Shown: positions 8,500 to 53,201, counted from the stretch's first letter. The stretch is DNA of 56,452 nucleotides from an uncultured Porphyromonadaceae bacterium (GCA_947176995.1 CAMWSY010000001.1:1-56452); one strand, 5' to 3'. Numbers and translations are program-made. The notes: a model not told the origin generated them from the sequence alone.

Positions 8500-11400
8500 A
8501 TGCGTTTATTAAAGAAAATTGCCATTATACTGACCGGTGCGCTCGTGTGCCCGGCGATCAAGGCTGAAGATAAGACTGTCTATGCGGTCTCCGATTCTCA
8601 TCTCGATACGCAATGGAACTGGGACGTGCGTACATCCATACGCGACTATCTCAGGTACACTTTAGGCCAGAATCTTCTGCTCCTCAGTCAGCACCCCGAC
8701 TATATTTTCAATTTTGAGGGAGGGGTGAAATATGCTTGGATGAAAGAGTATTACCCTGATCAGTATGAGCTGATGAAGCAGTATATCCGTCAGGGACGCT
8801 GGCATGTGGCCGGGTCAAGCTGGGATGCCAACGACGTCAATATCCCTTCCATCGAGTCACAGCTCCGCAACATCATGCTCGGTCAAAATTTCTTCCGTGA
8901 CGAGCTTGGCGTGGAGAGCACCGACATATTTCTTCCCGACTGTTTTGGATTTGGCTGGACTCTCCCCACTGTCGCACGCCACTGCGGTCTGATCGGTTTC
9001 TCCTCGCAGAAGATCGGATGGCGCACACATCCGTTTTTTGAGAATGACAGGAAATATCCGTTTGGTGTGGGGCTTTGGAAAGGTGTCGACGGCGATACCA
9101 TCATGATGGTGCACGGCTACAGCTACACCCACACATGGGACGGCGAGGATATCTCTCACAGCAAGGAGCTTGAAAAACTGGCCGATGAAAACGCCGGCAA
9201 CATAGTCTATCACTACTATGGCGTGGGCGACCGGGGTGGATCACCCACAATCGGCTCTATACGGTCGGTCGAGCGCGGCATCCGCGGCGATGGGCCTCTC
9301 AAGATCATAAGCGCCACGAGCGACCGGCTGTACCTCGACATGCTGCCATACTCGTCTCATCCCGAGTTGCCCGTCTACGACGATGAGATGCTCATGGACG
9401 TCCACGGCAACGGCTGCTACACGGCAATGGCTGTCATGAAGTTCTACAATCGCCAGAACGAGCTTCTTGCCGACGCTGCCGAAAGGGCGGCTTCGGCGGC
9501 CGCTATTCTGGCTCGTAAGCCATATCCGACCGAGGCTTTGACCGACTCTTGGAAACGCTTTATCTGGCATCAGTTCCACGACGACATTACCGGCACAAGC
9601 GAGCCACCTTGCTATGAAATTTCGTTCAACGACGAGTTGCTGTCGCTCAAGCAATTCTCCGACCTCCTGACCGATGCTGCCACCGGCGTTGCCCAGAAGC
9701 TGAATACCAATGTCTCAGGCACGCCGCTCCTGTTGTTCAATCCGCTCGGCTATGAGACGACCGACCTTGTTGAGGTGCAGCTCGATGCGAAACAGCGTCC
9801 GGCCTCAGCAGTCGTCAAAGACCACAACGGCCGTTCTGTCAGGTCGCAGATCACAGGCTACGACAATGGCAAAGCCACTCTGCTCATCGAGGCTACCGTG
9901 CCGGCGATAGGCTTCGCAGTCTACGATGTCGCCCTGAAGGGAAGCGGCACTGATAAGGCTGTCTCGGTCAGCACCGTCCAGAATAGCGTCTACGCGCTCA
10001 CGTTTGACCGTAATGGCGATATCCCGTCGATTGTCGACAAGCGCACCGGCAAGCAGCTTGTGGCCGATGGTAAGGCTGTGCGGCTCGCCATGTTCCCCGA
10101 CAATGTTTCCACCATGTGGCCTGCTTGGGAGATACAGAAAGAAACTATCGACCGTGAACCGGTTTCGATCGGCGATGACGTGGATATCTCGCTCGTGGCC
10201 GATGGCGACCTGCTCAAGCGCGTCAGGATTACGAAGAAACATGGCGATTCAGAGTTCACACAGTACGTCAACCTCTATGAAGGGGCACTTGCTCCACGCA
10301 TCGACATTGTCAACGAGGTCGAGTGGCAGAGTCCCGCTTCGTTGCTCAAGGCAGAGTTCCCGCTCACGGTGTCCAATGAAAAAGCTACCTACGACCTCGG
10401 TGTGGGCGCAATAGAGCGTGGCAACAATGTGACGACAGCCTATGAGGTTCCCGCCCGTGAGTGGGTTGATCTGAGCGATGATGCCTATGGAGTTACGCTG
10501 CTGAGCAATTTCAAGTACGGGTGGGACAAGCCCTCCGACAACACATTGCGGCTGACACTTTTCCACTCGCCCGGAGTGACAAACCGCTACACCCATCAGG
10601 AGCGTCAGGACTTCGGACACCACGAGTTCACCTACTCCATCATCGGACACGATGGTAAGCTTGACCGTGCGTCGGCATCCAAGGCCGGCGAGCAGATGTC
10701 GCAGCGTTTCAAGGCGTTTGTTGTGCCTAAATCCAAGGGGGAGGGGCGCAGTCTGTCGCTCGCGACTACCGATGCCCCCAACGTCGTCATCAAAGCCATG
10801 AAGCGTGCCGACGACGGCGACGGCTACATTGTGCGCGTCTATGAGACGGCCGGAAAGCCCGCCCAAGCCAACATCGTGTTTGCCGACAAGCTCAATTCCG
10901 CCAAAAAAGCCGACGGAACGGAAAAGGTCATTGCCGAGGCTGCAACCGACGGCAATAAGCTGCCTGTTAGTCTTAAAGCCAACGGCATAGCCACCTACCG
11001 CGTCTATTTCGACAACATGGAAACCGAGTCACCGGCTATGGCTACAGTGCTACTTCCCTACAACTATTGCGGTATTACCTACAATAGTTTCCGCCATGAC
11101 GGACGTCTGAACGGAGGTCTTAGCTATCCGGCGGAGATGATGCCTAATGAAATTGTCAAAAACGGTGTGAAGTTTTCAATAGAGAAGCGGCCGGCTGAAA
11201 ACGTTGTCCTCTGCAGCGGCGACACTATCGCGCTCCCCGAAGGAAAGTGGGATAAACTCCATCTGCTCATGGCGGCCGACACCGAGGGACGTGACCTAAA
11301 GGCCGACCTGACCGTAGGCGAGAAGACCACAACAGTCAGCGTGCCCTCCTACACCGGCTATATAGGGCAGTGGGGACACCACCCGCACAACGCTCCCGGC

Positions 11401-12639: not shown

Positions 12640-13628
12640 AGCGATAAAAGTGGAAGCGCGGCTATAGCGGCGTAAATCAGGATGATGACGATATAGGGTA
12701 TGTAGCTCAGGCGGTAACGCCGTGTTGCGAAGAAATGCCCGGTCTGATAGGCTGCCAAGGCGTCGAGCAGCGGGATATAGACGGTGAAATTATCGTGGTC
12801 GGCAGCTATGAGGATGAGTGTGACGATAAAGAGCAGGGTGATGAAGCCGTTGAAAGCGCGTCGGGCGGAGTTATAGCTCACCACCTTCATGAAATTGGCG
12901 AAGGTCAGTATCAGGCCGAGTGCGCCGGTGAAGGCCGTCGAAGCCAGCGTGAGGATGTAGATGGAATGATCGGTCATCGTGGGCATCAGATGCACCGGAG
13001 CGGTGGGAAACCGGAATGACTCTAATGACAGAATCCCCAAGCCGAGCAGAATCCAAAGCGGGGTCACACATCCCATCAACACAGCGAGTATGTTGCGCAT
13101 ATCGGCAGTTTTCATCTGCACCATGCCGAGGATGAACACCGGCAGATAAAACAGTGTATTGTAGAGAAACAGCGATGCGAGCGCGAGGATGAAGAAAATA
13201 AGATAAGTCGAGCGTGTGAGGTCGGGATTGGTGTAGGTGGAAAAAAGCAGTGCGGTGAGCGGCAGCACAATTAATGCCAGAAATGAACCACTGTAGAATT
13301 GAGCCAGCACCCCCGGCTGCGCGAGCTGCATGAAAAAGAACAGTCCCACAAAAAGCCATGTGATCGACTGCATGAGTCTGAACGTGCGGTTGATGACCAG
13401 CAGCATGAACGCGATGACTATATTTGCGGCCACGTTGACCGCAAACGAGGTCGCACCCGGTGTCAGCCAGTCGTCGGGCGAGGCAAAGGAGGTGATGGGG
13501 GAGTCGTGACCGGCCGTGAGAAAATCGTTGCTCCCGACGGTCGACATGAGTGCGGCTGCGCATACGGCGACAATCATGAGCATGATTGCCGCCGCACGCG
13601 AGTGGATATATTTCGTAGGAGTCTTCAC
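12636..13628 (-). CDS. Polytopic inner-membrane protein of unknown function
   Basis: 330 aa with about 9 hydrophobic helices. 4-bp start/stop overlaps with purD upstream and folA downstream. Confidence 0.7.
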   Translation of the reverse strand: MKTPTKYIHSRAAAIMLMIVAVCAAALMSTVGSNDFLTAGHDSPITSFASPDDWLTPGATSFAVNVAANIVIAFMLLVINRTFRLMQSITWLFVGLFFFMQLAQPGVLAQFYSGSFLALIVLPLTALLFSTYTNPDLTRSTYLIFFILALASLFLYNTLFYLPVFILGMVQMKTADMRNILAVLMGCVTPLWILLGLGILSLESFRFPTAPVHLMPTMTDHSIYILTLASTAFTGALGLILTFANFMKVVSYNSARRAFNGFITLLFIVTLILIAADHDNFTVYIPLLDALAAYQTGHFFATRRYRLSYIPYIVIILIYAAIAALPLLSL

Positions 13629-14902
13629 TTGCAGCCGCAGGTGACATCGCGCCCTATGTCACGGCGGAACGCCATGCCGTCGAATGCGATGTGTGAGAGA
13701 GAGGCGTAGCTGCGCTCAAGCGCTTCGGTGAGCGTGGGGGCAAGCGAAGTCACGGCAAGCACGCGGCCTCCCGACGTGATGGTCGAGTCGCCTTCGGTTT
13801 TTGTGCCTGCGTGGAAGATTATCGAGTTTTCGGCAGCCTTTTCAATGCCTGTTATGGTCTTTCCTTTGGCGTATGCTTCGGGATAGCCCCCCGATACTGC
13901 TATAACGGTTGCGGCAGCGAGAGGGGAGTGGGGCAGGGCGAGATCACCCAGATCGCCGCGGGCGGCTGCCTCGAGAAGCGGCACAAGGTCGCAGTCGATA
14001 CGCGGCATCACCACCTCGGTCTCGGGGTCGCCCATGCGCACGTTGTACTCTATCACCATCGGATCGCCCCCTACGTTGATAAGGCCGAGGAAAATAAATC
14101 CGCGGTAAAGGCGTCCTTCATCCATCAGTCCCTTGATTGTGGGCAGCACGATGCGCTCCTCCACCTTTTTCATGAAAGTCCCGTCGGCAAAAGGAACAGG
14201 GCTTACGGCACCCATACCACCGGTGTTGAGGCCGGTGTCGCCTTCGCCCACGCGCTTGTAGTCTTTAGCCACGGGGAGGATGCGGTAGCCGCCGTTACCG
14301 TCGGTGAGCACAAACACCGAGCACTCTATGCCGCTCAGAAACTCCTCGATGACTACTGTCGACGATGATTTCCCAAACATGCCACCGAGCATATCGGCGA
14401 GTGCCTTCTTGGCTTCGTCGAGCGAGTCGATGATCAGCACTCCTTTTCCTGCGGCAAGGCCGTCGGCTTTAAGCACGTAGGGGGGAGTGAGTGTCTCGAG
14501 GAACTTGTATCCTTCCTCTATCGTTTCGGCAGTGAAACTGCGGTAGCGGGCGGTGGGTATGCCGTGGCGCGCCATGAAAGCCTTTGCCACGTCCTTGCTT
14601 CCCTCAAGCTCCGCACCGGCTTTTGCCGGCCCTACGACAAGCACGTTCTTTCCTGAGAAATAGTCGGTGATACCGGCTACGAGCGGATCCTCGTTGCCCA
14701 CGACAATCATGTCGATACCGAGGTCATCCACAGCCTTTTCCACAGCCTCGAAGTCGAGCGGGCTCAGCTTTATGTTCTCGCCGTAGGCTCCGGTGCCTCC
14801 GTTGCCGGGAGCGATATACAGTTTCTCAACTTTAGGACTCTGTGAGATTTTCCATGCGAGAGCCGATTCGCGGCCGCCGCTTCCGAGCAGAAGTATGCGC
14901 AT
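13625..14902 (-). CDS. purD: Phosphoribosylamine--glycine ligase
   Basis: MRILLLGSGGRESALAWKI N-terminus, ATP-grasp core, 425 aa. Confidence 0.95.
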   Translation of the reverse strand: MRILLLGSGGRESALAWKISQSPKVEKLYIAPGNGGTGAYGENIKLSPLDFEAVEKAVDDLGIDMIVVGNEDPLVAGITDYFSGKNVLVVGPAKAGAELEGSKDVAKAFMARHGIPTARYRSFTAETIEEGYKFLETLTPPYVLKADGLAAGKGVLIIDSLDEAKKALADMLGGMFGKSSSTVVIEEFLSGIECSVFVLTDGNGGYRILPVAKDYKRVGEGDTGLNTGGMGAVSPVPFADGTFMKKVEERIVLPTIKGLMDEGRLYRGFIFLGLINVGGDPMVIEYNVRMGDPETEVVMPRIDCDLVPLLEAAARGDLGDLALPHSPLAAATVIAVSGGYPEAYAKGKTITGIEKAAENSIIFHAGTKTEGDSTITSGGRVLAVTSLAPTLTEALERSYASLSHIAFDGMAFRRDIGRDVTCGCK

Positions 14903-26654: not shown

Positions 26655-27893
26655 ATGAACGTCTCTATAATTGTCATAGGCGATGAGCTGCTCATAGGGC
26701 AGGTCACCGACACCAATTCCGGCTTCCTTGCCCGCACAATGCGTCCCGCCGGATGGAAAGTGCTTAAAGTCGAAGTTGTCCCCGACGACAACGCCGCCAT
26801 ACGCCGCGCCGTCACAGAAGCCCTTGACCGTGCCGATGTGGTGCTCACGACCGGTGGCCTTGGCCCGACGAAAGACGACATTACCAAGCAGGCGCTCATG
26901 GATGTGTTCGGCGGCGAGCTCTACCGCGACGAAGCGGTTGAAGCCAACGTCCGCGAGGTTGTGGGAAAACGCGGCATACGTCTTAATTCCCTCACTGCCG
27001 ATCAGGCGCTTGTACCCTCTTCATGCCGGGTCATTCAGAACCGCCTCGGCACCGCCCCCATCATGGTGTTTGAGCAGGAGGGCAAGACACTTGTGGCAAT
27101 GCCCGGCGTCCCGTTCGAGACACGAGGGATGTTCACCTCTGAGGTCTTCCCCATGCTTCTGCGCCGCTATACACCCGACGTGGCTCTGCGCAGCGATGTG
27201 ATTCAGGCTGTCGACATCACCGAGAGCGATCTCGCTCTGCGTCTCGCCTCATGGGAAGAGGCGCTTCCGCCTTTCCTTCATCTCGCCTATCTCCCTCAGC
27301 CCGGCCTCATACGTCTGCGGCTCGACGGAAGCCACATCGACCCGGCCGTTCTCGATGCCGAGATGGATCGCAGGCGCGCCGAACTTATAACCCTTGTCGG
27401 TGACAACCTTTTTGCCGACAGCGACATTACCCCTGCCGCGCTTCTCATCAAGCTCCTCGCCTCGCGTGGACTGAAAGTCGCCACTGCCGAGAGCTGCACC
27501 GGCGGAGCCGTTTCCGCTGCAATTACCGCCATACCCGGAGCAAGCGAAGTCATGCAGGGGGCAGTTGTTTCCTACAGCAACGACGTCAAAACCTCGGTTC
27601 TGGCTGTGGATGCTAAGGCTATAGAGGCCGTGGGTGCAGTGAGTGAGCCTGTGGTGCGGCAGATGGCCGCCGGAGTAGCACGGTTGTGCGATGCGGATTG
27701 CGCAATAGCTACCTCCGGGATTGCCGGTCCCGGTGGTGGTACGCCCGAGAAACCCGTGGGAACTGTCTGGATATGCGTGCTTACTCCCGCCGGTTCACAG
27801 GCATGGTGCTTCCATTTCCCCGGCGACCGCGAGCGCGTTGTCGGCCGTGCGGTCATGACTGCGCTCCTGCGACTATGTAAGGCGTTAAAATAA
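26655..27893 (+). CDS. cinA: CinA-family competence/damage-inducible protein (nicotinamide-nucleotide amidohydrolase)
   Basis: MoCF-biosynthesis-like N-terminal domain (IIVIGDELLIGQVTDTNS) and C-terminal CinA domain (ATAESCTGG). Confidence 0.9.
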   Translation: MNVSIIVIGDELLIGQVTDTNSGFLARTMRPAGWKVLKVEVVPDDNAAIRRAVTEALDRADVVLTTGGLGPTKDDITKQALMDVFGGELYRDEAVEANVREVVGKRGIRLNSLTADQALVPSSCRVIQNRLGTAPIMVFEQEGKTLVAMPGVPFETRGMFTSEVFPMLLRRYTPDVALRSDVIQAVDITESDLALRLASWEEALPPFLHLAYLPQPGLIRLRLDGSHIDPAVLDAEMDRRRAELITLVGDNLFADSDITPAALLIKLLASRGLKVATAESCTGGAVSAAITAIPGASEVMQGAVVSYSNDVKTSVLAVDAKAIEAVGAVSEPVVRQMAAGVARLCDADCAIATSGIAGPGGGTPEKPVGTVWICVLTPAGSQAWCFHFPGDRERVVGRAVMTALLRLCKALK

Positions 27894-30800
27894 TGATTAC
27901 AATATATAAAGCCTCCGCAGGGTCGGGTAAGACCTTCACCCTTGCGCTGCGCTACATATCTCTCCTCATCGGTTGGCACGAAAGTGTCACCGGGCGTTGG
28001 CGGCTCAACTCACCGGCCGCACCGCCTCCCGCGCGTCATCGTGCGATTCTGGCGGTGACGTTCACCAACAAGGCCACCGCCGAGATGAAGACCCGCATTG
28101 TCGAGACACTGGCGGCGCTTTCCCACCCCTCATGTCCTCCCGACAATCCCTATATGGAGAAACTCCTCGGGATTATCGCTCCCGCCAAGGTATCCGGGAT
28201 ATCGTTTGCTGCGCGTCGTGCCCTCATGCAGTTGCTTTTTGATTTCGGCTCGTTCAACGTTTCCACGATCGACTCCTTTTTTCAGACAGTGCTCCGCACA
28301 TTCGCCCGCGAGTTGAACCTCCCCGACAACTACCGCATTCAGCTCAATCAGCAGGAAGCCATCGAGAACGCCGTGCGTGATATGCTCGACGTCATCAACA
28401 GCAACTCCCCCTATTTCCCCGATGTGGCCGATGCCGACAGTGTTGGCCGCAAAGAGCGTCTGCGCGAGTGGATACTTGCATTCATGGAGTCGCGCATGTC
28501 CGACGGTAAGGCATTCAACCTTTTCAACCGCTCCACATCCACCTTTGCCGGGATCACAAGGCAGCTTTCACTTCTTTTCAACGAAACCTACAAGCTCCAC
28601 GCCCCCAAGATCGATGCTTGGCTCGATGCCGATTCCGGCACGAGAGTCATAAAGTTGCGCGAGGCCTTGGGCCGGCGCATCGGTCAGCTGCGCCACGACA
28701 TTATAGCCCGCACCGATGCACTCCTCACCTACGTTAGCTCCTTCGGCGACAAAGTCATAAACCGCAATCTCGCTTCAGCCGTAAAGTGCTGGACAAAAGG
28801 AGAGCCGGCGAAGACCGACTCAAAAACAATGATAGCCGTAGCCGCTGGCGACCCCGATGCATGTGTTGCGGCCGCCTACAAAAAAGATACGGCCCTATCA
28901 GGCCGTATCTTGGAAGCATTTACCCGGAATCTCCACGATCAGAAGCAGCTCGCGTCACTCTCCTTCCTTATCCGTCATCTTTATCCCCTCGGGCTTTTCG
29001 GCGAGATGCGCCGTCACCTTGATAAATTCTGTCGCGAGGAAAACATGGTGCTTCAGAGCAATACCAATGATTTTCTGTCGCGCATCATCTCCACCGAGAA
29101 GGAAGCTCCCTTTATCTACGAGCGCCTCGGACTGCGTCTGCAGCACTTTCTTCTCGATGAGTTTCAGGACACATCAGCCATGCAGTGGCGCATCCTGCGT
29201 CCCTTGATTCTCGAGAGTCTGAGTAATGGAAAGGATAACCTCATTATTGGCGACGGGAAGCAGAGCATCTACGGCTTCCGTAATACCGATTACCGGTTGC
29301 TGAACCACATCGTGGCCAAGGAGGTTGGTGAGCGGCATTATCCCATCGACGACCGCGGAAGCGGTCCCGGCGAGAACGTCAACTATCGCTCCTCCCACAC
29401 TATAGTCCGTTTCAACAACGCCCTATTCGACGCCATCCCGGCCGTCTACGACCTCACTCCCGCCGACTCAGGCGTCTCTGTCTACGCCGGCACTGTTCAG
29501 GAGCTTGCCGACAAGACAGCCACCGAGCCCGGCTACGTCGATATTGCGATCCTTGACTTCGACCAATCCGCCGCCGACTCTTCTGGTGAGGATGATGCTC
29601 CCGGATTTAAGGAATTGGGGCTCTCCCGTCTGCTTCAGGGAGTTGTGCGTCAGCTTCGCGCCGGTTACCGCCCCAAGGACATAGCCGTGCTCGTGCGCAA
29701 GCGTTCCGAGGGTGAGGAAGTGGTGAAGCATCTTCTCAGTGCCATGGATACCCCCGGGTGGGAAGGGCTGCCACGCGTTCAGGTCATGTCCTCCGATGCC
29801 ATTCTTGTCGGCGAATCCCCGTTGGTGAAGATGATTGTAGCGCGTATGCGCATGTTGCTCATGCCCGACGCCACGCCCCCTGCCGAGGCTGAGCCATCCA
29901 CCCGTCGTGCCGTGACGCATCGCGATATTACCCGCTTCGTCAGCCGTTTCCACATGCACCTTTTCGTTTCAGGCGAAGATGCCGCAGGTGCGCTTGGCAA
30001 AGCCGTGGGGGAGTGTTCCCCGCGGCTCGCTCAGGAGCTCCCCTATGATGCCGCTTCCGACGACCGCCTGCTATATGCTCCTGCGGCCGGACTCGTCACG
30101 CTGGCCGAGCGCATTGTTCGTGAAGCTGTTGCTGCCGACGCGGGTTCTGCCACAGCCGAGGCCGGGATGCACAGTATCTACATTTCCGCCTTCATGGACA
30201 TGGTCAGCGACTATGCTTCCCACTACGGCAACGACCTGCGCGGATTTCTTGAGTGGTGGGATGCCAACCGTGGTGCCAAGAGCCTTTCAGTACCCGACGA
30301 CGTCGATGCTATCAACGTGCTCACGATTCACAAAGCCAAAGGGCTCGAGTTCCCATGCGTTCATGTCCCGTTCCTCAGTTTCCGCATGACCGAGACCTCC
30401 ACAGCGTTCAAGCCCTCCTACCGTTGGTATCCCGCAGGCGATATTCCCGGCATTGATCCTGAGCTTGTTCCCCCTTACATCCCCCTTGAAAACAAGACCG
30501 ATCTTGAGTTGATGCCTGAAAGCATAGCCCGGGAGTTCCGTGAATTTATCCGCAGCCAGTATCTCGACAATATAAATCTCCTTTATGTAGCCCTTACCCG
30601 TCCCACCCGCGAGTTGGTGGTGACGGCACAGCTTGGCAAGGATGAGAAGACCGAAACCGTCGGCGACGCCCTTCTCAAAGGCATAAAAGCGGCCGTTTCC
30701 GATACCGCTTTGAAACTTCCCCTCGCCTCGTTGCTTACTCCCGGGGCAACACTCATCATAGGCGAACTGACATCACGCGCAGCATCCTCCGCGACATCTA

Positions 30801-31360
30801 AGTCGGCTACGATGCCCGATTATGTTGTACGCGACAACGATAGCCTGCTCAAGATCACCCGCACAGCCGATCGGTATATCCATGACTTCGCCGATCCGGT
30901 TCTTCGCTACCGTTTTCTCAAGCGTGTGTTGGCCGAGACCCGCAGTGCCGCCTCACTCCCTGTAGTGCTCCGTAGGCAGGCCCACAAATCCCGCCTTGAC
31001 TCCGAGAGTGCCGCACGGTTGCTTGATGCCATCCGTAATGCGATTGACCATACTCCCGAAGCGCCCGGCTGGTTCGACGGCTACACCCGCCTTTTGCTCT
31101 CACCCGAGATATTCGTGGGTAATGTCCCCGACATAAAGCGTTGGCGTCCTGACCGCATCGTCTGGCGTGCCGACGGTTATGTCGACGTCGTTGAGTATTG
31201 TACCTCGGCGCTCGATGATCAGCAGATTGCCAATTTGTGCAGCAAAGTGCGCTCGGTCATGCGCCGTCTCGCCGCAATGGGGCACACAGGCATACGCGGC
31301 TTCCTCTGGAACATCGACACCCCCGCCGCCCTCCGCCTCACCCTCCCCTCCAACACGTGA
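27893..31360 (+). CDS. UvrD/AddA-like helicase with C-terminal PD-(D/E)XK-like nuclease region
   Basis: Walker A ASAGSGKTFTL at the N-terminus, LLDEFQDTS motif, 1155 aa. C-terminal RPDRIVW...VDVVEYCTS resembles a RecB-type nuclease motif. Confidence 0.8.
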   Translation: MITIYKASAGSGKTFTLALRYISLLIGWHESVTGRWRLNSPAAPPPARHRAILAVTFTNKATAEMKTRIVETLAALSHPSCPPDNPYMEKLLGIIAPAKVSGISFAARRALMQLLFDFGSFNVSTIDSFFQTVLRTFARELNLPDNYRIQLNQQEAIENAVRDMLDVINSNSPYFPDVADADSVGRKERLREWILAFMESRMSDGKAFNLFNRSTSTFAGITRQLSLLFNETYKLHAPKIDAWLDADSGTRVIKLREALGRRIGQLRHDIIARTDALLTYVSSFGDKVINRNLASAVKCWTKGEPAKTDSKTMIAVAAGDPDACVAAAYKKDTALSGRILEAFTRNLHDQKQLASLSFLIRHLYPLGLFGEMRRHLDKFCREENMVLQSNTNDFLSRIISTEKEAPFIYERLGLRLQHFLLDEFQDTSAMQWRILRPLILESLSNGKDNLIIGDGKQSIYGFRNTDYRLLNHIVAKEVGERHYPIDDRGSGPGENVNYRSSHTIVRFNNALFDAIPAVYDLTPADSGVSVYAGTVQELADKTATEPGYVDIAILDFDQSAADSSGEDDAPGFKELGLSRLLQGVVRQLRAGYRPKDIAVLVRKRSEGEEVVKHLLSAMDTPGWEGLPRVQVMSSDAILVGESPLVKMIVARMRMLLMPDATPPAEAEPSTRRAVTHRDITRFVSRFHMHLFVSGEDAAGALGKAVGECSPRLAQELPYDAASDDRLLYAPAAGLVTLAERIVREAVAADAGSATAEAGMHSIYISAFMDMVSDYASHYGNDLRGFLEWWDANRGAKSLSVPDDVDAINVLTIHKAKGLEFPCVHVPFLSFRMTETSTAFKPSYRWYPAGDIPGIDPELVPPYIPLENKTDLELMPESIAREFREFIRSQYLDNINLLYVALTRPTRELVVTAQLGKDEKTETVGDALLKGIKAAVSDTALKLPLASLLTPGATLIIGELTSRAASSATSKSATMPDYVVRDNDSLLKITRTADRYIHDFADPVLRYRFLKRVLAETRSAASLPVVLRRQAHKSRLDSESAARLLDAIRNAIDHTPEAPGWFDGYTRLLLSPEIFVGNVPDIKRWRPDRIVWRADGYVDVVEYCTSALDDQQIANLCSKVRSVMRRLAAMGHTGIRGFLWNIDTPAALRLTLPSNT

Positions 31361-31397
31361 CACTCTCCACTCTCCGAGTGCTCTGAGTTCTCATGTA

Positions 31398-32810
31398 TCA
31401 CATCCCTTCTATCCTCCTGTCACGTCGTCGCAAAAACGACAGAAACGTGTCCATTAGGTCTCTTATGGCGATTGTAGCGTTCTCCACCTGCGCCGCATAC
31501 CGTTCAGCGCCCGCGCCACCACCGGGGTCTTGCCCCATGAGCACATCGCTTACCCCCGACACATCGCGGAACATCTGCATCTCCAGTTTCAGCAGATCCT
31601 TCGCCCCGATGTCGCCCACCGACGGGTTAAGCTGACGAGGCGGTTCGTCGCCCGGGCGGAACTTATAGGGGATGATACCGTCGGTCGCGCTCCATGCCTT
31701 TGCCACGTGAGTCAGCTCCATCCCCTCGGCGAGGCAGTCAACCGGAAACAGCAGAGCGCCTTTTGCCGAGCTTGCCATGATACGGTCGATCAGATTCACG
31801 AGGCGGTTCACATATTTCTGTTGGTCGATCACATCCTCCACCAGCGAGTGGACTTCGCCATCCACGAGCGGATAGAGCTTCATCACAAACGGGCATTCCT
31901 CGCCGCTCCCTTTCAGCTCCCTTCTCAGCACGGTTCCGTCGCCCAAGAGCCACTCACCGTGCCACCGCCGTTCTGTCACGATGCGGGTTTTCATCACATC
32001 GCGTCCCTCCTTGGTGCGCCGGGCATTTTCCCGGTTTATTGCTGTCATTTCCTCCGGCAGCCGCTCGCTGTAAGTGCCGGTTTCCATGTCATGGCATCTC
32101 ACGATCTCAGTCGGTTCTGCGCCCCACACCTCTATCACCCTCACCTTCCCATCCTCATCCGAGCAATTGAAATCCGGCTCATCCTCTGCGCCGCCGGTCA
32201 TTCTGCCTCCGTTTCCCGTCATCATCCCGCGGCATTTCTCACGCAGTTCCGATCTTCTCAATCGGTTTCCATTGCCAAATTCCATCACCACCTCCTCAGG
32301 TGTCAGGTCATGGAGCATACCCGCAAGCCTTATGTCGCGGCCTCGTGGATCGCGTGGCATCGACAGGAAGAAACGCGACAGCGGCACATTATGGACCGTC
32401 ACACCCTCCTCATCATCTCCCGGCCAGCGGCCTAACCGCTGAATTGCCGCCCCCGATATGAGAAACTCCTCAAGCAGGCGGCAGTCCAGTTCGTCAAGCT
32501 CATTGTCAATGTGCATTCGTGCAAGTTTCTGGCTGATTGTTCCCGGCTTGTCGGCCATCTTCTGGCGGTACACTCTGAACCGCCCCACGACGCATTTTAC
32601 AAGTTGCCGTATCATGTTGTTTGTCAGCGGCGGGCGTCCGTCCCGTGAGAGTATCTCCCTCTCCGTCGTTACTTTCCCTGTGTCAGGATCTCTCACCCGG
32701 TCATCCCATTGCCGTCCGTAGGTGAAACGCTTGTAGCGTTCGCGGCGGCTTCGCAGTTCACCACACGCCATCCACGCATCCGCCCCTCTTTCCATCAGTG
32801 TCCTCATCAC
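31398..32810 (-). CDS. Phage portal-like protein
   Basis: 470 aa. N-terminal RYKRFTYGRQWDD-type motif and overall pattern resemble podovirus-type portal/connector proteins (recognised from memory, no search). Sits in a capsid-gene context. Confidence 0.6.
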   Translation of the reverse strand: MMRTLMERGADAWMACGELRSRRERYKRFTYGRQWDDRVRDPDTGKVTTEREILSRDGRPPLTNNMIRQLVKCVVGRFRVYRQKMADKPGTISQKLARMHIDNELDELDCRLLEEFLISGAAIQRLGRWPGDDEEGVTVHNVPLSRFFLSMPRDPRGRDIRLAGMLHDLTPEEVVMEFGNGNRLRRSELREKCRGMMTGNGGRMTGGAEDEPDFNCSDEDGKVRVIEVWGAEPTEIVRCHDMETGTYSERLPEEMTAINRENARRTKEGRDVMKTRIVTERRWHGEWLLGDGTVLRRELKGSGEECPFVMKLYPLVDGEVHSLVEDVIDQQKYVNRLVNLIDRIMASSAKGALLFPVDCLAEGMELTHVAKAWSATDGIIPYKFRPGDEPPRQLNPSVGDIGAKDLLKLEMQMFRDVSGVSDVLMGQDPGGGAGAERYAAQVENATIAIRDLMDTFLSFLRRRDRRIEGM

Positions 32811-32847
32811 TCCATCTCACTTTATTTAATTCTTATCCACAACATCT

Positions 32848-32941
32848 CCGGCCGGAGGCCGGACATTTCCGTTAACCGCGGGCGTTTACGCCCGTGGACA
32901 GCTAACCATTCCACCCGTAATCGTCCCCGGCGGGGACGCAC
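32848..32941 (+). repeat. REP family A, copy 1 (three-hairpin unit)
   Basis: ccggcc-gga-ggccgg, gcgggcg-ttta-cgcccgt, cgtcccc-ggc-ggggacg. Near-identical units at 35693, 35897 and 53061. Confidence 0.8.
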
Positions 32942-32955
32942 AAAAAAATGTAAAC

Positions 32956-33498
32956 TTATTGCGCCCCTTTCCACCTTCCCATCGTCACCAATAATCCGCT
33001 GTCCATCGTGAAACTCTCCCCGTCACCTTCGGTTATCACCCGCAGGCACTCCACATCTTCACCTGCCGGAAAGCATCTTATCCGGTTCGGCTGAAACACC
33101 ACCGCCACCGGCTCTTCCGTACCCGCCTGCGTGTACTCCCAGCGTTGCAGTTCCGCCTCGCGGCTTTCGGGTGTCACGATCATCCCTTCACGTTTCCAGC
33201 CGCTTAGTCTCACCTCCGTGATTCTCCGGCAGCCGGTTGTCGCAGGCAGTTCCACATCCGTTCCGCCACCCGGTGCCGCTTTTGTCGTGCACCTGATGCT
33301 CACATCTTTGGTCTCGAGCATCCCGGCAGGAGCCGTGGCTACGACGTGATGCCACCAGTCCATCATCTCAGCCTCATCGAGAGCATCAGTGTCCGTTCCA
33401 TCCAGTTCCACCGTCACGTCCCCTCTCATGGGCTCCAGCCCACGGCGCAGTCGCCACTGTGCCATGAGCTGGGCTTTTGTGTAAGTAGTTAGCATCAC
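32956..33498 (-). CDS. Hypothetical protein in the head module (possible head-tail adaptor/head completion protein)
   Basis: 180-aa ORF 5 bp downstream of the capsid-like gene. The functional guess rests on position only. Confidence 0.5.
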   Translation of the reverse strand: MMLTTYTKAQLMAQWRLRRGLEPMRGDVTVELDGTDTDALDEAEMMDWWHHVVATAPAGMLETKDVSIRCTTKAAPGGGTDVELPATTGCRRITEVRLSGWKREGMIVTPESREAELQRWEYTQAGTEEPVAVVFQPNRIRCFPAGEDVECLRVITEGDGESFTMDSGLLVTMGRWKGAQ

Positions 33499-33503
33499 TC
33501 ACC

Positions 33504-34901
33504 TCATTTCTTAATGATGCGCATGTGAGCCGACGGGTATCGGAGCACAAGGCAGCTTGCCTCGGTTATCACCACAGCGTCAGTGTTGCGCTGTCCGCTC
33601 TTGCGCAGATTCAGTCGTTCGGTGCTGAAAGGAATGTGAGCGTACTTTGTGATGTATTCCGGATCGATCACAAGGCCGTCGGCACCGTGACCACACTGGT
33701 CAAACACTTCGCTCATCACCACATAGAGCGTTCCGAACTTTGTGCGTATCTCCGTGAAGTCCAGTCCCCATTTTGTCACGTTGTTCTGACCCGTCACCAC
33801 ATGCTGGTGGTCCATCGAGTTCAGGGCTGCAATCAGTTCGCTTCCTCCCACAAGGATTTTCTTCGACGAGCCGCCGTTGCCGGTGAAAGCCTCGCGGGTG
33901 ATCTCCACAAGAGTCTCGTGATCCATAGTGGAGTATTCCGTTTCCTTACCCGCTTGGTTCCATATACCACCCGTGAGCATCACCTCCTCCTGCTTGTAGG
34001 GATCGGTCAGGCGCATACGGCTGCCGAAAAGAAAACTTTTCTCCATGCCGAGGCGCATATCCACGATTGCCGATTCCTCTTGGTCGCTCAGCGTCCATCC
34101 AACCTCCTTGTCCGAGAGTTTCAGGAGCGTACTTTGCTCAATTTGAGCCTTAAATATTTGGCACAGATTGTAATCCTTGGTCGGAATGGCCTCATATTGT
34201 GCGGTCTGAACATCCAGTTCGGCGGCTGCGCGTCCCATTCTCACTATCTCCGTTCCCGCCGCCAGCGACGGCACGGCAAGCGATCCCCCCAGATAGTGAT
34301 TCACCGACATCACCGAGATATTTGCCGAGTCAGTCCCCGCCACATAGAGCACGAGACTTCCGTTGGGCTTCCCTTTGGCGTCCAAGGCCTTCACACTTGG
34401 CACAAGCACCGTGTCCGAGATAGAGAAACGAGCCGGATTCTCCACTTTCACCGACACCACACCCGTGTCAGCCTCCGATGCGGCAGCCACCTTGTCCGTC
34501 ATCGGCTTGTTGTCCACCGAATAGTAGTCAGCCTTCATGCTTCCGATGACGCGGCAGCCGCCCCAGCGCGAAATCTGATCGATAGGAGTAGCCATCGGAC
34601 GTATCTTCACCACACGGCGGTCTACAGCCGATCTGAGCAGTTCACCCGACGCTTCACGCGTGTTTGTCACCGTCAGCGGAGCGCCGTCAACACCGGCACC
34701 ACCAGCCATACCCGCGAGCACCACAGCCATAGTTACCCCTGTGCCGCCGTCATCGCTACCACCGAGCAGGAAATAGGCCAGCATAGCCACGAAACCAGCC
34801 ACCGTGATCGGCCCGTTATGCTTGCGCATAGCTTCGATCATCTTCACTGCCACCACCTTGAGCACCTTCAGTGCTACCTTCACAATCTTCTTGAAATTCA
34901 T
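33504..34901 (-). CDS. Phage major capsid-like protein (HK97-fold type suspected) with hydrophobic N-terminal extension
   Basis: 465 aa. From about aa 95 the sequence reads like a tailed-phage major capsid protein (from memory). Flanked by scaffold-like and portal-like genes. Confidence 0.6.
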   Translation of the reverse strand: MNFKKIVKVALKVLKVVAVKMIEAMRKHNGPITVAGFVAMLAYFLLGGSDDGGTGVTMAVVLAGMAGGAGVDGAPLTVTNTREASGELLRSAVDRRVVKIRPMATPIDQISRWGGCRVIGSMKADYYSVDNKPMTDKVAAASEADTGVVSVKVENPARFSISDTVLVPSVKALDAKGKPNGSLVLYVAGTDSANISVMSVNHYLGGSLAVPSLAAGTEIVRMGRAAAELDVQTAQYEAIPTKDYNLCQIFKAQIEQSTLLKLSDKEVGWTLSDQEESAIVDMRLGMEKSFLFGSRMRLTDPYKQEEVMLTGGIWNQAGKETEYSTMDHETLVEITREAFTGNGGSSKKILVGGSELIAALNSMDHQHVVTGQNNVTKWGLDFTEIRTKFGTLYVVMSEVFDQCGHGADGLVIDPEYITKYAHIPFSTERLNLRKSGQRNTDAVVITEASCLVLRYPSAHMRIIKK

Positions 34902-34960
34902 AGTATTAATCTGTTATTAAGTTGGTTATTAAATCTGATAATTTGCATCTTGTTTCTTTT

Positions 34961-35066
34961 GCCCGTGAAACGGGCTCAACAATTGCCAGCCCCGGGTGAC
35001 CGAAGGGAACCCGGGGTAAGGAGTTACCTTGGTTGAGCTGCGGAGCTGCGAAACAACTCCGTCTTT
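34961..35066 (+). repeat. Structured repeat motif D, copy 2 (between scaffold-like and capsid-like genes, opposite strand)
   Basis: gcccg-tgaaa-cgggc (34961-34975), ccccggg-tgaccgaagggaa-cccgggg (34990-35016), gagctgcggagctgcgaaac (35035-35054), hairpin cggag/ctccg (35041-45/35057-61) followed by tcttt. Confidence 0.7.
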
Positions 35067-35182
35067 GTACGCCCGGCCGTCTACGTCAGGAACGTACTAC
35101 CCGTAAATTAGGCAATGCCTGAGACTTGTTCGGTACTATCCTCCTTAACGTCCTGTTCCCATTCTCTGCGACTCTCCCTCTC

Positions 35183-35479
35183 TCACTCCCACACGCTTCT
35201 TCGCATCTCCCGTAAAATCATCACCGCGTCCTCCCCGTCATCATCATCCGCGCACTCGGGGCGTTTCCCGTGTCCCGGACGCTCCATCAGCGCATCCACC
35301 GCCTCATTTCGCCCGCGCAGATACCCGCGGTTCTCCGCATCCCTCACCATCTGTTCCACCATCTCAGGAGTCAGCGCCTCCGTCGGTTCTTCCTCAGCCA
35401 CAGCAGTAGCCGGTGTTTCCGCAGTCACCTCCTGCGGCACTTCGGTGCTCTCGGGCACCAGATCCATTTCGTTTTCCAT
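35183..35479 (-). CDS. Small acidic protein, scaffold-like (first gene of the head module)
   Basis: 98 aa. Glu/Thr/Pro-rich acidic N-terminus, a helical AENRGYLRGRNEAVDAL segment and a DDDDGED tract. Position directly upstream of the capsid-like gene. Confidence 0.5.
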   Translation of the reverse strand: MENEMDLVPESTEVPQEVTAETPATAVAEEEPTEALTPEMVEQMVRDAENRGYLRGRNEAVDALMERPGHGKRPECADDDDGEDAVMILREMRRSVWE

Positions 35480-35518
35480 AGTCGATAAAAAAAGTTTACA
35501 GCGTCGTTATTGACACTG

Positions 35519-35526
35519 CAAACTTA
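35519..35526 (-). promoter_or_regulatory. Candidate -7 promoter box (TAAGTTTG on the minus strand) for the head module
   Basis: The + strand reads caaactta, 40 bp upstream of the ATG at 35479. Confidence 0.45.
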
Positions 35527-35595
35527 CAACCATCCACCTCCCCAAAATGTGTTAAATGACCCTTCCGCTCCCTGTGGGTTGATATTCCTCACTGA

Positions 35596-36075
35596 GAGTA
35601 GGGACGCACGGCCCGTGCGTCCTCTTTCCTCCTTCCCCTTCCGCGTTCTCTGAGTCCTCTGAGTTCTCCGCGTCCTCCTCAAGATAGCCCATCCGGCCGG
35701 AGGCCGGATATTTGGTTAACCGCGGGCGTTTACGCCCGTGGACAGCCGAGCACGACTTACCACTTATCGTCCCCGGAGGGGACGCACCCAAGATTAGCAA
35801 CCTTATTTGAACCGCATTGCACGGCCCGTGCGTCCTCTTTCCTCCTTCCCCTCCGCGTTCTCTGAGTTCTCCGCGTCCTCCTCAAGATAGCCCAATCCGG
35901 CCGGAGGCCGGACATTTGGTTAACCGCGGGCGTTTACGCCCGTGGACAGCCGAGCACGACTTACCACTTATCGTCCCCGGAGGGGACGCACCCAAGATTA
36001 GCAACCTTATTTGAACCGCATTGCACGCCCCGTGGGTCCTCTTTCCTCCTTCCCCTCCGCGTTCTCTGCGTTCTC
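35596..36075 (+). repeat. Tandem array (about 2.3 copies, period 213 then 204 bp) of a composite REP unit (B hairpin + CT-rich spacer + family A)
   Basis: The anchor cacggcccgtgcgtcc (cacgccccgtgggtcc in the third unit) starts at 35607, 35820 and 36024. Unit 1 carries an extra 9 bp (cctctgagt). Confidence 0.85.
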
Positions 36076-36170
36076 CTCAAAATAGCGCCGGAGGCGCGTT
36101 ATTGTGATTAACCTCAGGCGACCGATAGGGAGCCTGAGGAGAAATCCTGAGCCTCGGAGAGGCGACGTTA

Positions 36171-37202
36171 TCAAAACCTCACCTGCAAGATCAGCCGCTG
36201 ATAGAAATTGAAATTATCCTTGGCCGCATGAAAGTCAAGCGACGCCTCCAGTTTCACATGGTTGCTCCGTATCACGGCATACCCCACATCCGTGCGGCTG
36301 TACCACGGCGAAGCATAGTAAGGCTCACCCTGATCGAGCACCGACCCGTAGCGGCTGTAGTAGGGAAACAGCCGTCCACCGCCGTACGCCTCCTCTCTGA
36401 AACTGAAACGCCGCCAGTCGATGCACCCCTCTATCCACACACCACCGCGGCTCACCCACTTGTGGTCTGCCCCGCGGTCACGTGTCATTGATGCGAGCAC
36501 GCCGCCCTTCAGCGTCAGCCGCTCGGCCCACGTCGCCTTCTCAGTGAAATCTGCGCCGATATATGGGTTGGCAATAAAATTATCAACCACTTGCTCCTCC
36601 ACCGGGGCGTTCTTCCGTCGTGCGAGGTGATTCATCATAGCCGTGCCGCCGGCGGTCAGCACGCTGTTGCCGCCGCGTCGCCATTCGCCATCCACGATTA
36701 TGTTGAAAGCCTCGCGCTGCTTCTCTGTCTGCATCCCGCGCCAGTCCAGCACCCCTTGGACAAAACCGTGGTTTCCGCGCATCACGATCCCGGCGCCCCT
36801 TATGTTGCGCTGCACGTAGTAGCAAGAGTCGTTCCAGATGTAGTCAGGCAGACGGCGCGCAAGCTGTTCGCGGCCGAACATACCCAGCCATCCCTCCGTG
36901 CCCTCGTGGCGGTAGCGGTAGTAGAGAGTGGGCGAAACCCTGTGCCCATCCCATTCGCAACCGATAGGCTGTGTCCACACAACACCACCCATCACCGTGT
37001 GGCGTCCGTTGTCAAGGCTCAGCCCTATCTCCGGGGCAAGTTGGGTCATGAAAAACGTTTCAGCCTCGGTGTACGTCTCATCCCCCTCGCGGTTGTCAAA
37101 TATCGTCTTGAAATCGACACTCCATTCCACCGTAGGCTTCTGAGCCATGACCGCTGTTGCAGCCATGGCCCAGAAAAATGCTATGATAAACAGTCGTTTC
37201 AT
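36171..37202 (-). CDS. Predicted outer-membrane beta-barrel protein of unknown function
   Basis: Signal peptide [21 protein letters not shown], aromatic/Gly-rich alternating pattern, C-terminal ...LILQVRF. 4-bp overlap with gltX. Confidence 0.6.
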
Positions 37203-45821: not shown

Positions 45822-45955
45822 GGGCGTTGCGCAAGCACGCCCATTAGCCCGTGCAACGGGCGTCACAAGTGCCAGCACCGGGTGACCGCAGGGAACCCGG
45901 TGAAAATATGTGTATTATCATCGAGCTGCGGAGCTGCGACACACCTCCGACTTTT
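45822..45955 (+). repeat. REP family E hairpin plus structured repeat motif D, copy 3
   Basis: E: gggcgt-tgcgcaagc-acgccc (45822-45842). D: gcccg-tgcaa-cgggc (45847-61), caccggg-tgaccgcagggaa-cccggtg (45876-45902), gagctgcggagctgcgacac (45923-42), cggag/ctccg (45929-33/45945-49) then acttttaaaa. Confidence 0.7.
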
Positions 45956-46029: not shown

Positions 46030-46752
46030 TTATTTCGCTTTGGCGGCCGACTTGGTGGTCACAAGTATCACCCCGGATGCACCCTGCACGCCATAGAGCG
46101 ACGCATCCTTTATCACCTCCACATGATCCACATCGTGGACACTCATAAACTCAAGCGATGGTACCTGCACACCATCGACAAAAAATGCTGGTGGGGCATT
46201 CTTCGTAAAGGAGCCCGGAGTGAGATCCGCTGTTTGAGCATTACGGATGTTTGCAGTCGCTTTCCCACTGATTTGATCGACGCTGATATTTAGTCCAGTC
46301 ACGAGCCCGGCGAGTGCCGCCAATATGTCGTTTTTCCCTGTCCGGCGAAGAGTCTCGCCGCTGATGCCGGAGCTGGAACCTGTAAATTCGCGGCGCTTCA
46401 CATATCCGAAGCCGAAGTTTACAAGTTCATCATCCTGCTGCGCGTCAGCGTTGCCGTCAGCCGCAAGGATTATCCTCATGCTTTGGCGACCGTCGACGGG
46501 AACGCGTATGATCTGCTTCTTGGATATGCGCAGTGTCAGGGTGTCATCGGGAAGTATGTTGGTGAGTCCGAAGCGCCCTTTCTTATCGGTCAGAGAGTAA
46601 TAGTTCGGGTCATTGAGATAGACTCTTATATTCTTGACTGGTTTTAGCTCGCTATTCAGGATCACCCCATTGAAAGGAGTGTCGTCAGCAACGGCCGCAA
46701 CCGGTGTCATCAGCGGCAGTGCCAAAATCAATAATAAATTGTGAATTTTCAT
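46030..46752 (-). CDS. Stand-alone CarboxypepD_reg-like + TonB-receptor plug domain protein (no barrel)
   Basis: Signal peptide. GVILNSELKPVKNIRVYL...DKKGRFGL (regulatory-like domain), then a plug-like region ending VEVIKDASLYGVQGASGVILVTTK. Only 240 aa. Confidence 0.7.
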   Translation of the reverse strand: MKIHNLLLILALPLMTPVAAVADDTPFNGVILNSELKPVKNIRVYLNDPNYYSLTDKKGRFGLTNILPDDTLTLRISKKQIIRVPVDGRQSMRIILAADGNADAQQDDELVNFGFGYVKRREFTGSSSGISGETLRRTGKNDILAALAGLVTGLNISVDQISGKATANIRNAQTADLTPGSFTKNAPPAFFVDGVQVPSLEFMSVHDVDHVEVIKDASLYGVQGASGVILVTTKSAAKAK

Positions 46753-53033: not shown

Positions 53034-53201
53034 GTAGGGGTGTTGCGGCAGCACGCCCATCCGGCCGGAGGCCGGACATTTGGTTAACCGCGGGCGTTTA
53101 CGCCCGTGGACAGCCGAGTACGACTTATCACTTCGTCCCCGGCGGGGACGCACCAAAATTGGCAAACGTTATTTGAACCGTATTGCACGGTTCGTGCGTC
53201 C
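53034..53201 (+). repeat. REP mosaic: family E hairpin (53038-53058), family A unit (53061-53153), partial family B hairpin (53185-53197)
   Basis: gtaggggtgttgcggcagcacgccca parallels 45819-45843. The A unit is near-identical to 35693-35787. The B fragment is gcacg-gtt-cgtgc. Confidence 0.8.

Follow-up and report, generated by a model that had tools for sequence, protein, structure and literature searches.

Introduction

Gene transfer agents (GTAs) such as those of the RcGTA type, BaGTA, VSH-1 and FpGTA are built from phage structural and packaging genes that are fixed in the host chromosome without integrase or replication genes. Their parts are inherited vertically under purifying selection, lie at several loci and stand behind host-type promoters; a recently reported member is FpGTA of Faecalibacterium (PMC12946183). 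A cassette of four phage head genes, found amid housekeeping genes in a 56-kb chromosomal window of a gut Muribaculaceae bacterium (CAMWSY010000001.1:1-56452; the window is the whole stretch of 56,452 nucleotides analyzed here), shares these properties. In Muribaculaceae and related Bacteroidales, the gene set to which it belongs has become fixed in the chromosome and is inherited vertically. It differs from the described GTAs in its apparently independent origin from podophages resembling SU10, P22 and BF1-TP2 and in its occurrence in Bacteroidota. Only eight genes were recognized as recurrent, and no tail fibers, lysis genes or regulators were identified; the window holds only four of them, all head genes, and the system is known from genes alone.

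Phage-inducible chromosomal islands of the capsid-forming kind (cf-PICIs), a type of phage satellite, are a second point of comparison. Their gene set is small; it encodes a capsid, a portal, a connector or adaptor and packaging proteins of their own, but no tails. They are horizontally mobile and possess an integrase, att sites, AlpA-type regulators and a replication module. The cassette has none of these, lies in synteny with host genes and has diverged along with them. A partial phage gene set in the chromosome is also characteristic of cryptic or defective prophages, but the cassette is intact across many species, is constrained at the level of housekeeping genes and has a derived, compact gene order.

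The evident source lineage is represented by BF1-TP2, BS-TP4 and BKO1-TP3, cultured temperate Bacteroides phages of 64-68 kb (PMC12694917), and by their relatives in IMG/VR, which encode homologues of the seven components other than the first cassette gene. Unlike the cassette, these are complete viruses with an integrase, a repressor, an endolysin and large tail-like genes. Their c9 and large terminase (TerL) genes are divergent from the scaffold-capsid-gp55-adaptor genes, their scaffold (~270 aa) and portal (~650 aa) are longer, and their capsids, 36-44% identical, fall outside the cassette clade. We found no description of this cassette in the literature, and none of a GTA in Bacteroidota. 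Muribaculaceae and their relatives dominate the gut, and their gene exchange is poorly understood.

Conservation and inheritance of the cassette

The cassette consists of the following genes.

35183..35479, minus strand: ORF1, scaffold-like protein, 98 aa, acidic (27 D+E versus 10 K+R)
33504..34901, minus strand: ORF2, major capsid protein (MCP), 465 aa, HK97 fold, SU10_MCP/DUF5309 family
32956..33498, minus strand: ORF3, predicted head-to-tail adaptor, 180 aa (179 aa if the start is the ATG at 33495)
31398..32810, minus strand: ORF4, portal, 470 aa, P22-like

An initial annotation of this DNA had reported four intact, co-oriented open reading frames (ORFs) on the minus strand, and each was confirmed. 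They lie between a UvrD/AddA-like helicase gene (27893-31360) on one side and, on the other, an outer-membrane protein gene and gltX; the orthologue of the outer-membrane protein at locus L001 belongs to the Lipid_A_deac family. Labels of this kind denote genome stretches with related genes.

Ratios of nonsynonymous to synonymous substitution rates (dN/dS) were estimated between the window and four relatives (L009, L010, L012 and L001) with capsids 88-95% identical to that of the window. The ratio was 0.04-0.06 for the MCP, 0.08-0.11 for the portal and 0.11-0.16 for the adaptor, as compared to 0.03 for tsaD, 0.036 for gltX, 0.04-0.07 for cinA and 0.12 for the UvrD-like helicase among the flanking genes. 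ORF1 gave 0.2-0.26, and 0.78 against L009, where only 52 codons could be aligned. Synonymous divergence (dS) from L009 was 0.56-0.94 in the cassette and 0.75-0.84 in the flanks; from L001 and L012 it was ~1.6-2.4 and 1.5-2.3, respectively. Since cassette and flanks have comparable dS, the module has evidently co-diverged with its neighbors since before the species split. It occupies the same location between gltX and the UvrD-like gene in L009, L001 and L012, where insertions and deletions of host genes surround an untouched cassette. Among genomes taken at species level, reading frames were uninterrupted in 83 of 83 loci for the MCP, 66 of 66 for the adaptor and 63 of 64 for the portal, or 212 of 213 genes in total.

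These comparisons indicate vertical inheritance with the host under purifying selection. The initial annotation had favored a retained cassette over a fresh remnant and had proposed dN/dS and the content of the addA-like to gltX interval as checks; both agree with retention, and neutral decay fails on both. The G+C content of the module (0.55-0.59) falls within that of its neighbors (0.54-0.60); by eye, the initial annotation had judged the two to share a GC-rich codon style.

Identities of the encoded proteins

ORF2 is an HK97-fold MCP. It matches Pfam SU10_MCP (PF17236, formerly DUF5309) at 1.9e-47 and 162.7 bits (cutoff 24.1) over model positions 12-289 of 292, and phrog_26635 at 1.5e-81; a sequence-profile search of the PDB returned a phage VP1 capsid (9in6) at 2e-10. 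The AlphaFold2 model is of moderate confidence (mean predicted local distance difference test score, pLDDT, 61.5), with Foldseek TM-scores of 0.22-0.30 against the PDB. Phage capsid proteins fill the first 18 places among its PDB matches, with VP1 (8e-15) at the head and crAss001, P1 and SU10 next. Residues 1-90 (window 34632-34901) lie outside the Pfam match, and phage homologues have a similar extension. The first ~45 residues are predicted to form two helices with hydrophobic stretches (pLDDT ~60-70), and residues 50-90 have pLDDT below 50. These ~90 N-terminal residues may be a delta-like domain; no protease gene is present.

ORF4 is a P22-like portal. It matches P22_portal (PF16510) at 4.3e-21 and 75.5 bits (cutoff 26.1) over model positions 3-432 of 594, and the portal family phrog_156 at 1.4e-39. 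Its profile aligns with residues 23-524 of the 644 residues of BF1-TP2 gp61 (2.6e-130). The ~120 C-terminal residues found in related phage portals are missing.

Neither ORF1 nor ORF3 had a direct family match in Pfam or PHROG searches. For ORF3, 37 orthologues could be aligned, with five invariant columns, and an AlphaFold2 model built from 26 homologues reached a pLDDT of 88.9 and a predicted TM-score (pTM) of 0.78. The nine best Foldseek matches in the PDB are all chains from entries of podovirus tails or portal-tail complexes, assemblies of the type in which the adaptor is found, including crAss001 (7qoj_D, 2.6e-4, probability 1.0), GP4, Carin-1, SU10 and LME-1, with TM-scores of 0.35-0.44. 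In BFVD the matches are podovirus proteins of ~220 aa, some of them named 'Head to tail adaptor' or 'Tail tubular protein A', with a best TM-score of 0.58. In addition, the ORF3 profile matches BF1-TP2 gp54 (1.4e-13), which is encoded at the equivalent place downstream of the phage capsid gene. On the strength of the structural matches and of gp54, ORF3 is identified, by predicted fold, as a podovirus-type head-to-tail adaptor. Because the TM-scores are moderate, this is an assignment to a fold class (the T7 gp11 or 'tail tubular protein A' type) and not one of close homology, and a dodecameric ring on the portal clip would be expected of that class. The third gene had been left without a function in the initial annotation, which suggested looking for a gp6-like adaptor fold, and an adaptor is what the model points to.

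The most fitting reading of ORF1 is a scaffold-like protein that has been shortened and whose N-terminus is acidic. Its profile aligns (E ~2e-9) with residues 145-260 of a 269-aa protein encoded just upstream of the capsid gene in related phages, where the scaffold is expected, and the two have the motif RGYLRGRNE...RRSVW in common. A homologue at L003 weakly matches the head scaffolding family phrog_8865 (E 0.0012). The scaffold-like, capsid and portal labels first given to ORF1, ORF2 and ORF4 thus agree with the profile and structure matches.

Recurrence and architecture among relatives

More than 2,600 relatives of the capsid protein were found in the protein collection, many of them on contigs of 100-500 kb, and a related capsid gene is present in 540 genomes (one genome per species scanned) from Muribaculaceae, Barnesiella and other Bacteroidales. 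The cassette was surveyed in the 80 best loci. About 60 of these have the order ORF1-MCP-adaptor-portal, at differing chromosomal positions amid housekeeping genes, and ORF1 lies directly upstream of the capsid gene in 63 loci. When the ORFs lying up to 10 kb from the cassette in both directions were clustered all against all, only four further recurrent partner families emerged, namely c9, c10, TerL and c20. The small proteins c9 and c10 are encoded after the portal gene in 44 loci. TerL, which matches phrog_2 at 1.3e-16, is encoded 1-3 kb upstream of the capsid gene in 12, and c20, a protein of ~880 aa, was seen in 10 loci by clustering and in 14 by a later profile search.

The fullest architecture, c20-TerL-ORF1-MCP-adaptor-portal-c9-c10, spans ~10.5 kb. 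In full clusters all eight genes are constrained (dN/dS 0.08-0.33), and c20 is the one that evolves fastest. No match to any of the eight proteins was obtained in NCBIfam, and sequence-profile searches of the PDB with ORF3, c9, c10 and c20 gave nothing usable. At L023 the eight-gene element has a HipBA pair and a sulfate permease gene as its neighbors on one side and lpxA on the other, and no integrase, lysis or recognizable tail gene was found in it. A gene for a helix-turn-helix protein and a HipA-N/HipA-C toxin-antitoxin pair stand immediately upstream of this element (L023:2289-3957).

From this form the architectures range through a 7-gene type with TerL displaced, a 6-gene type and the 4-gene type of the window to a lone scaffold-capsid pair. 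Such pairs lie among host genes in 12 genomes (L060, L062, L068, L076, L079, L080, L081 and L084-L088). Loci of the L060 type had been considered as full prophages; this was rejected, as they are lone pairs amid host genes. An extracytoplasmic function (ECF) sigma factor gene adjoins the cassette in L001/L012 and L060/L062; it did not recur elsewhere and was dropped as a coincidence. The ~60 cassette loci, surveyed to 10 kb on either side, yielded no integrase, no att-like repeat, no replication gene and no regulator.

Some loci are irregular. Two cassettes of different subclades (L043 and L066) occur in one metagenome-assembled genome (MAG), JAFXHY01, and one of them has the only interrupted portal gene seen; the bin may be contaminated, or there may be a genuine second copy that is decaying. 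The L099 contig (IMGVR_UViG_3300035327_000422, 298-9809) holds MCP-adaptor-portal-c9-c10 twice, in inverted orientation and with the same profile scores for both copies, which is probably an assembly artifact. In L007 (IMGVR_UViG_3300011002_000616, 10001-10657) a 217-aa ORF corresponds to the C-terminal half of the capsid only (residues 251-465) and may be a truncated copy.

Dispersed genes and the terminase

Components of the set also occur apart from one another among host genes. An intact lone TerL gene directly follows ftsA-ftsZ in the division and cell wall (dcw) cluster of four assemblies (L089:10001-11992, L090:10001-12019, L091:10001-12019 and L179:10001-11962), and in a fifth it lies 2.3 kb from ftsZ (L178:10001-11986). 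These lone TerL genes have a dN/dS of 0.06 and a dS equal to that of ftsZ, ftsA, murC and ugd. In L176 (GCA_948503965.1, CAOPKZ010000001.1, 10001-21926) one contig holds both TerL and the head genes with c9, c10 and c20, and four polysaccharide-synthesis genes of the host (Bac_transf, Ugd, WecG and WecB) lie between them. TerL is 7-9 kb away and inverted in L055 and L056. The c9 and c10 genes of L010, which is closely related to the window, are inverted as well, at a distance of 5 kb. In L013 (1-11386), L014 and L061, ~4 kb of inserted DNA parts the scaffold-capsid pair from c20-adaptor-portal-c9-c10; the insert encodes an endonuclease (phrog_13076), a phrog_19793 protein and small ORFs.

A scatter of intact genes amid those of the host is also what multi-locus GTAs are known to show. 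TerL and head genes are found together in L176 and in the eight-gene loci; the window has the head genes only. The original description of the module as an orphan is correct for the window, but not for the relatives, which hold TerL, c9, c10 and c20 adjoining the head genes or elsewhere in the chromosome.

Origin from temperate Bacteroides phages

Seven of the eight components have counterparts in BF1-TP2: TerL (gp60, 3e-177), the MCP (gp56, 1e-116), the portal (gp61) and the adaptor (gp54), both with the values given above, c9 (gp58, 9e-14), c10 (gp34, 2.8e-6) and c20 (gp33, hhalign 88%, 3e-6). A counterpart of ORF1 was found only in related IMG/VR phages, not in BF1-TP2. The capsids of BF1-TP2, BS-TP4 and BKO1-TP3 are ~39% identical to that of the window. 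In the phage, gp58 is encoded just upstream of TerL, which by position makes c9 a candidate small terminase. The gene after the phage adaptor, gp53, a possible nozzle, had been considered as the counterpart of c20 and was rejected on testing; c20 matches gp33.

The phage homologues are spread over the genome in an order that is uniform among the phages and different from that of the cassette, so the cassette order is derived. A phi29-type gene order had been suggested for the module at first; this likeness is superficial, the proteins being SU10-, P22- and BF1-TP2-like.

A search of IMG/VR with the single capsid protein gave one truncated match, and a profile search was used instead. Capsid identities to the window are bimodal, with ~70 contigs at 36-42% and ten at 48-58%. 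Many contigs of the first group are 30-83 kb long with the uniform phage gene order, and some of the second are cassette fragments. A neighbor-joining tree of this one protein was calculated for 69 taxa with 200 bootstrap replicates. Cassette capsids form one clade with 100% bootstrap support, cassettes together with lone scaffold-capsid pairs are supported at 94%, and the true phages sampled are separated at 100%. The nearest outgroup consists of genuine phages or prophages. These have a scaffold of full length, gp55-like genes, tail-like genes, a divergent c9-TerL pair and an integrase homologue. As far as a distance tree of one protein can indicate, this is consistent with a single ancient capture from a lineage of temperate phages, after which the set was reduced, compacted and passed on vertically.

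Promoter, leader and repeats

The noncoding features of the cassette are listed below.

35519..35526, minus strand: -7 promoter box TAAGTTTG (Bacteroidetes consensus TAnnTTTG), 40 nt upstream of the ORF1 ATG, read directly
35492..35525, minus strand: inverted repeat of 14 bp with a T-run behind it, situated in the ORF1 leader so that it overlaps the -7 box, from a scan for terminator-like structures
34990..35016, minus strand: G+C-rich hairpin (CCCCGGGT...ACCCGGGG) in the 281-nt spacer between ORF1 and the capsid gene
32851..32941, no strand assigned: partial copy of a repeat resembling repetitive extragenic palindromes (REP-like), inserted in the adaptor-portal spacer with both genes undisrupted
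35600..36120, no strand assigned: REP-like tandem mosaic with units of ~204 nt, separating the cassette promoter from the outer-membrane protein gene upstream

The -7 box is where it had first been placed. As GTAAGTTTGCAG it is invariant in relatives of the window lineage despite saturated synonymous sites, and TAnnTTTG occurs between -200 and +60 of the first cassette gene in 60 of 63 loci, as compared to ~10% of random windows. A scan for the sigma-70 consensus is uninformative for Bacteroidetes promoters. A CATTTAACACA block at ~35548-35558, ~21 nt upstream of the -7 box, is likewise invariant in relatives with saturated dS. The leader inverted repeat is kept in L009, L001 and L012 through wobble-compatible changes. 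The inverted repeat and the CATTTAACACA block may be an operator or an attenuator.

The REP mosaics around and inside the module, described previously, and the spacer hairpin are present. The 32-nt core of the REP-like repeat, GTTAACCGCGGGCGTTTACGCCCGTGGACAGC, has four copies in the window against 0 expected, one of them at 53083-53114. The partial copy at 32851..32941 is passenger sequence and not machinery, and the mosaic at 35600-36120 is a genome-wide repeat that provides context only. The hairpin element, CCCCGGGTTCCCTTCGGTCACCCGGGG, has a second, variant copy at 45876-45902, and the ORF1-capsid spacer that holds the first copy is 281 nt long in the window as compared to ~15-75 nt in L009, L001 and L012. 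This hairpin is one copy of a genome-dispersed repeat, probably inserted here.

A very probably domesticated head module and its possible function

Being conserved, selected and present in hundreds of species, and having no integrase or lysis genes, the gene set is a strong candidate for a new domesticated virus-like particle system. The window genes very probably constitute a domesticated head module under selection. On balance, they are also judged to be the head sub-cluster of a multi-locus, GTA-like particle system, with somewhat better than even confidence; among the three explanations offered in the initial annotation, the domesticated (GTA-like) one is thus favored. The ancestor was evidently a temperate Bacteroides phage of the BF1-TP2 type; its integrase, repressor, replication, lysis and recognizable tail genes have been lost, and the remaining set is compacted into its own order behind the conserved Bacteroidetes-type promoter box. 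In P22-type assembly, scaffold, coat and portal suffice for the formation of procapsids. Expression of scaffold, capsid and portal by the host could likewise yield portal-bearing procapsids, which a terminase encoded elsewhere in the genome would fill with DNA. The adaptor would then close the portal and provide a docking site for a short tail.

That the particle is specifically GTA-like in packaging DNA is proposed by analogy and tentatively, at a little short of even confidence. Chromosomal DNA of Duncaniella, a member of the Muribaculaceae, is abundant in virus-like-particle fractions, with uniform coverage and without a known mechanism (bioRxiv 10.64898/2026.07.08.737213). As support for a GTA this is circumstantial and suggestive only. 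More tentative again is the full proposition, in which an independently domesticated, podophage-derived GTA with scattered parts (ORF1, MCP, adaptor, portal, c9, c10, c20 and TerL) gives rise to the unexplained Muribaculaceae DNA in gut virus-like particles. If true, this would be the first viriform of the GTA type known from Bacteroidota and might be a main path of gut gene flow, and it would provide a genetic handle on the Bacteroidales chromosomal DNA carried in virus-like particles. The 8-, 6-, 4- and 2-gene versions and the scattered parts offer a natural series of the absorption of a virus into a host genome. Direct tests of the hypothesis are feasible because some carriers are in culture, namely Muribaculaceae Isolate-002 and Isolate-013 and two further isolates, C34_57_MI_BP, with the 8-gene architecture, and C36_59_MI_BP.

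Several results weigh against a GTA-like system. A profile search of all stop-to-stop frames found no TerL, c9, c10 or c20 in the 56-kb window. Several subclades have the 4-gene type of the window, with neither partner genes nor remnants of them found up to 4-8 kb away. No terminase was linked to the genome of the window or to its closest relatives, and an attempt to connect terminase and capsid through locus tags and accession numbers returned no shared genome. In L002 a decayed TerL (L002:8514-9527 and 13370-13810; a 338-aa open frame, with only profile positions 197-433 and 568-619 represented) lies beside intact head genes, and a DUF5675 protein replaces c9 after the portal gene. This is the only locus with TerL decaying in place, and it suggests that head genes may not need a cognate TerL and may outlive a neighboring terminase. 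Family and structure searches assigned no function to c9, c10 or c20, and no tail-fiber, receptor-binding, lysis or regulator gene was recognized in any locus. Almost all loci come from MAGs, and the single origin of the cassette is read from a neighbor-joining tree of one protein.

The strongest competitor of a GTA-like system, though an unlikely one, is an immobilized capsid-forming satellite, which would build its own heads, rely on a BF1-TP2-like phage, either infecting or resident, for terminase, tails and lysis, and hijack part of the burst; in this form it would have no integrase or replication module of its own. The combination of capsid, portal, adaptor and scaffold, with or without terminase and without tails, resembles the packaging module of cf-PICIs, reportedly described by Alqurainy and colleagues in 2023. 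Related temperate phages with capsids 36-44% identical are common in gut Bacteroidales, the adaptor implies docking of an externally supplied tail, and the 4-gene type without a nearby terminase and the decayed TerL of L002 are both consistent with a helper. However, the ~60 loci are devoid of integrase, att-like repeats, replication genes and regulators, the position is conserved with a divergence that tracks the flanks over saturated dS, and a dN/dS at housekeeping level is unusual for a parasitic element. Furthermore, with no more than ~36-44% identity between the cassette capsid and portal and their phage counterparts, co-assembly with phage parts is uncertain. The satellite option of the initial annotation is thereby weakened.

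Less probable than a satellite is interference with infecting phages, in which capsid, portal, adaptor and scaffold made by the host would co-assemble or compete with phage parts, giving decoy procapsids or poisoned assembly and so shielding the population. Head genes kept without a nearby terminase, the abundance of related phages in the same habitat and the HipBA pair adjoining the L023 element would suit such a role. The MCP dN/dS of 0.04, however, is unlike the diversifying pattern expected of an arms race, and interference leaves the conserved, intact TerL, c9, c10 and c20 unexplained, including the lone TerL at ftsZ. PADLOC returned no real defense match; its weak hit of ORF1 to AbiEi (21.6 bits, E 2.7e-5) was attributed to the compositional bias of this acidic protein.

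Neutral decay of the last piece of a prophage, one of the options raised initially, is refuted for practical purposes. A partial phage set with no terminase, tail or lysis genes in the window and with REP-like repeats inserted in two spacers could give this impression, but dN/dS is far below 1 (0.04-0.16 for three structural genes, at dS up to or beyond 2), divergence tracks the flanks, the same four-gene order recurs intact in dozens of species, the cassette clade is monophyletic and the promoter is conserved. An encapsulin-like nanocompartment, the remaining option, would account for an HK97-fold shell protein without nearby tail genes and for weak structural matches of the capsid model to encapsulins at ranks 44 and 47, but it is highly improbable: the shell protein is conserved together with a portal and an adaptor, relatives have a terminase associated with the cassette, no cargo-type gene was recognized, and the closest matches are phage capsids, not encapsulins.

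Genomic setting of the window

Apart from the cassette, the window is ordinary chromosome of ~52 kb. By Pfam annotation its remaining large ORFs comprise only housekeeping and polysaccharide-utilization genes, and the initial conclusion that the module is not a recognizable prophage is supported by this annotation and by the profile search. The annotated ORFs include valS, tsaD, cinA, gltX, recX, prmC, purD, rlmL and the UvrD/AddA-like helicase gene, as well as genes for SusC/SusD, GH43 and GH38 enzymes, MBOAT/DHHW proteins and Fe-S proteins. No tRNA gene and no flanking direct repeats were found in the window, and an Rfam scan of 31000-36500 gave no match. At 46030-46752 a 240-aa ORF contains only the CarboxypepD_reg and Plug domains of a TonB-dependent receptor and is probably a truncated SusC-like gene.

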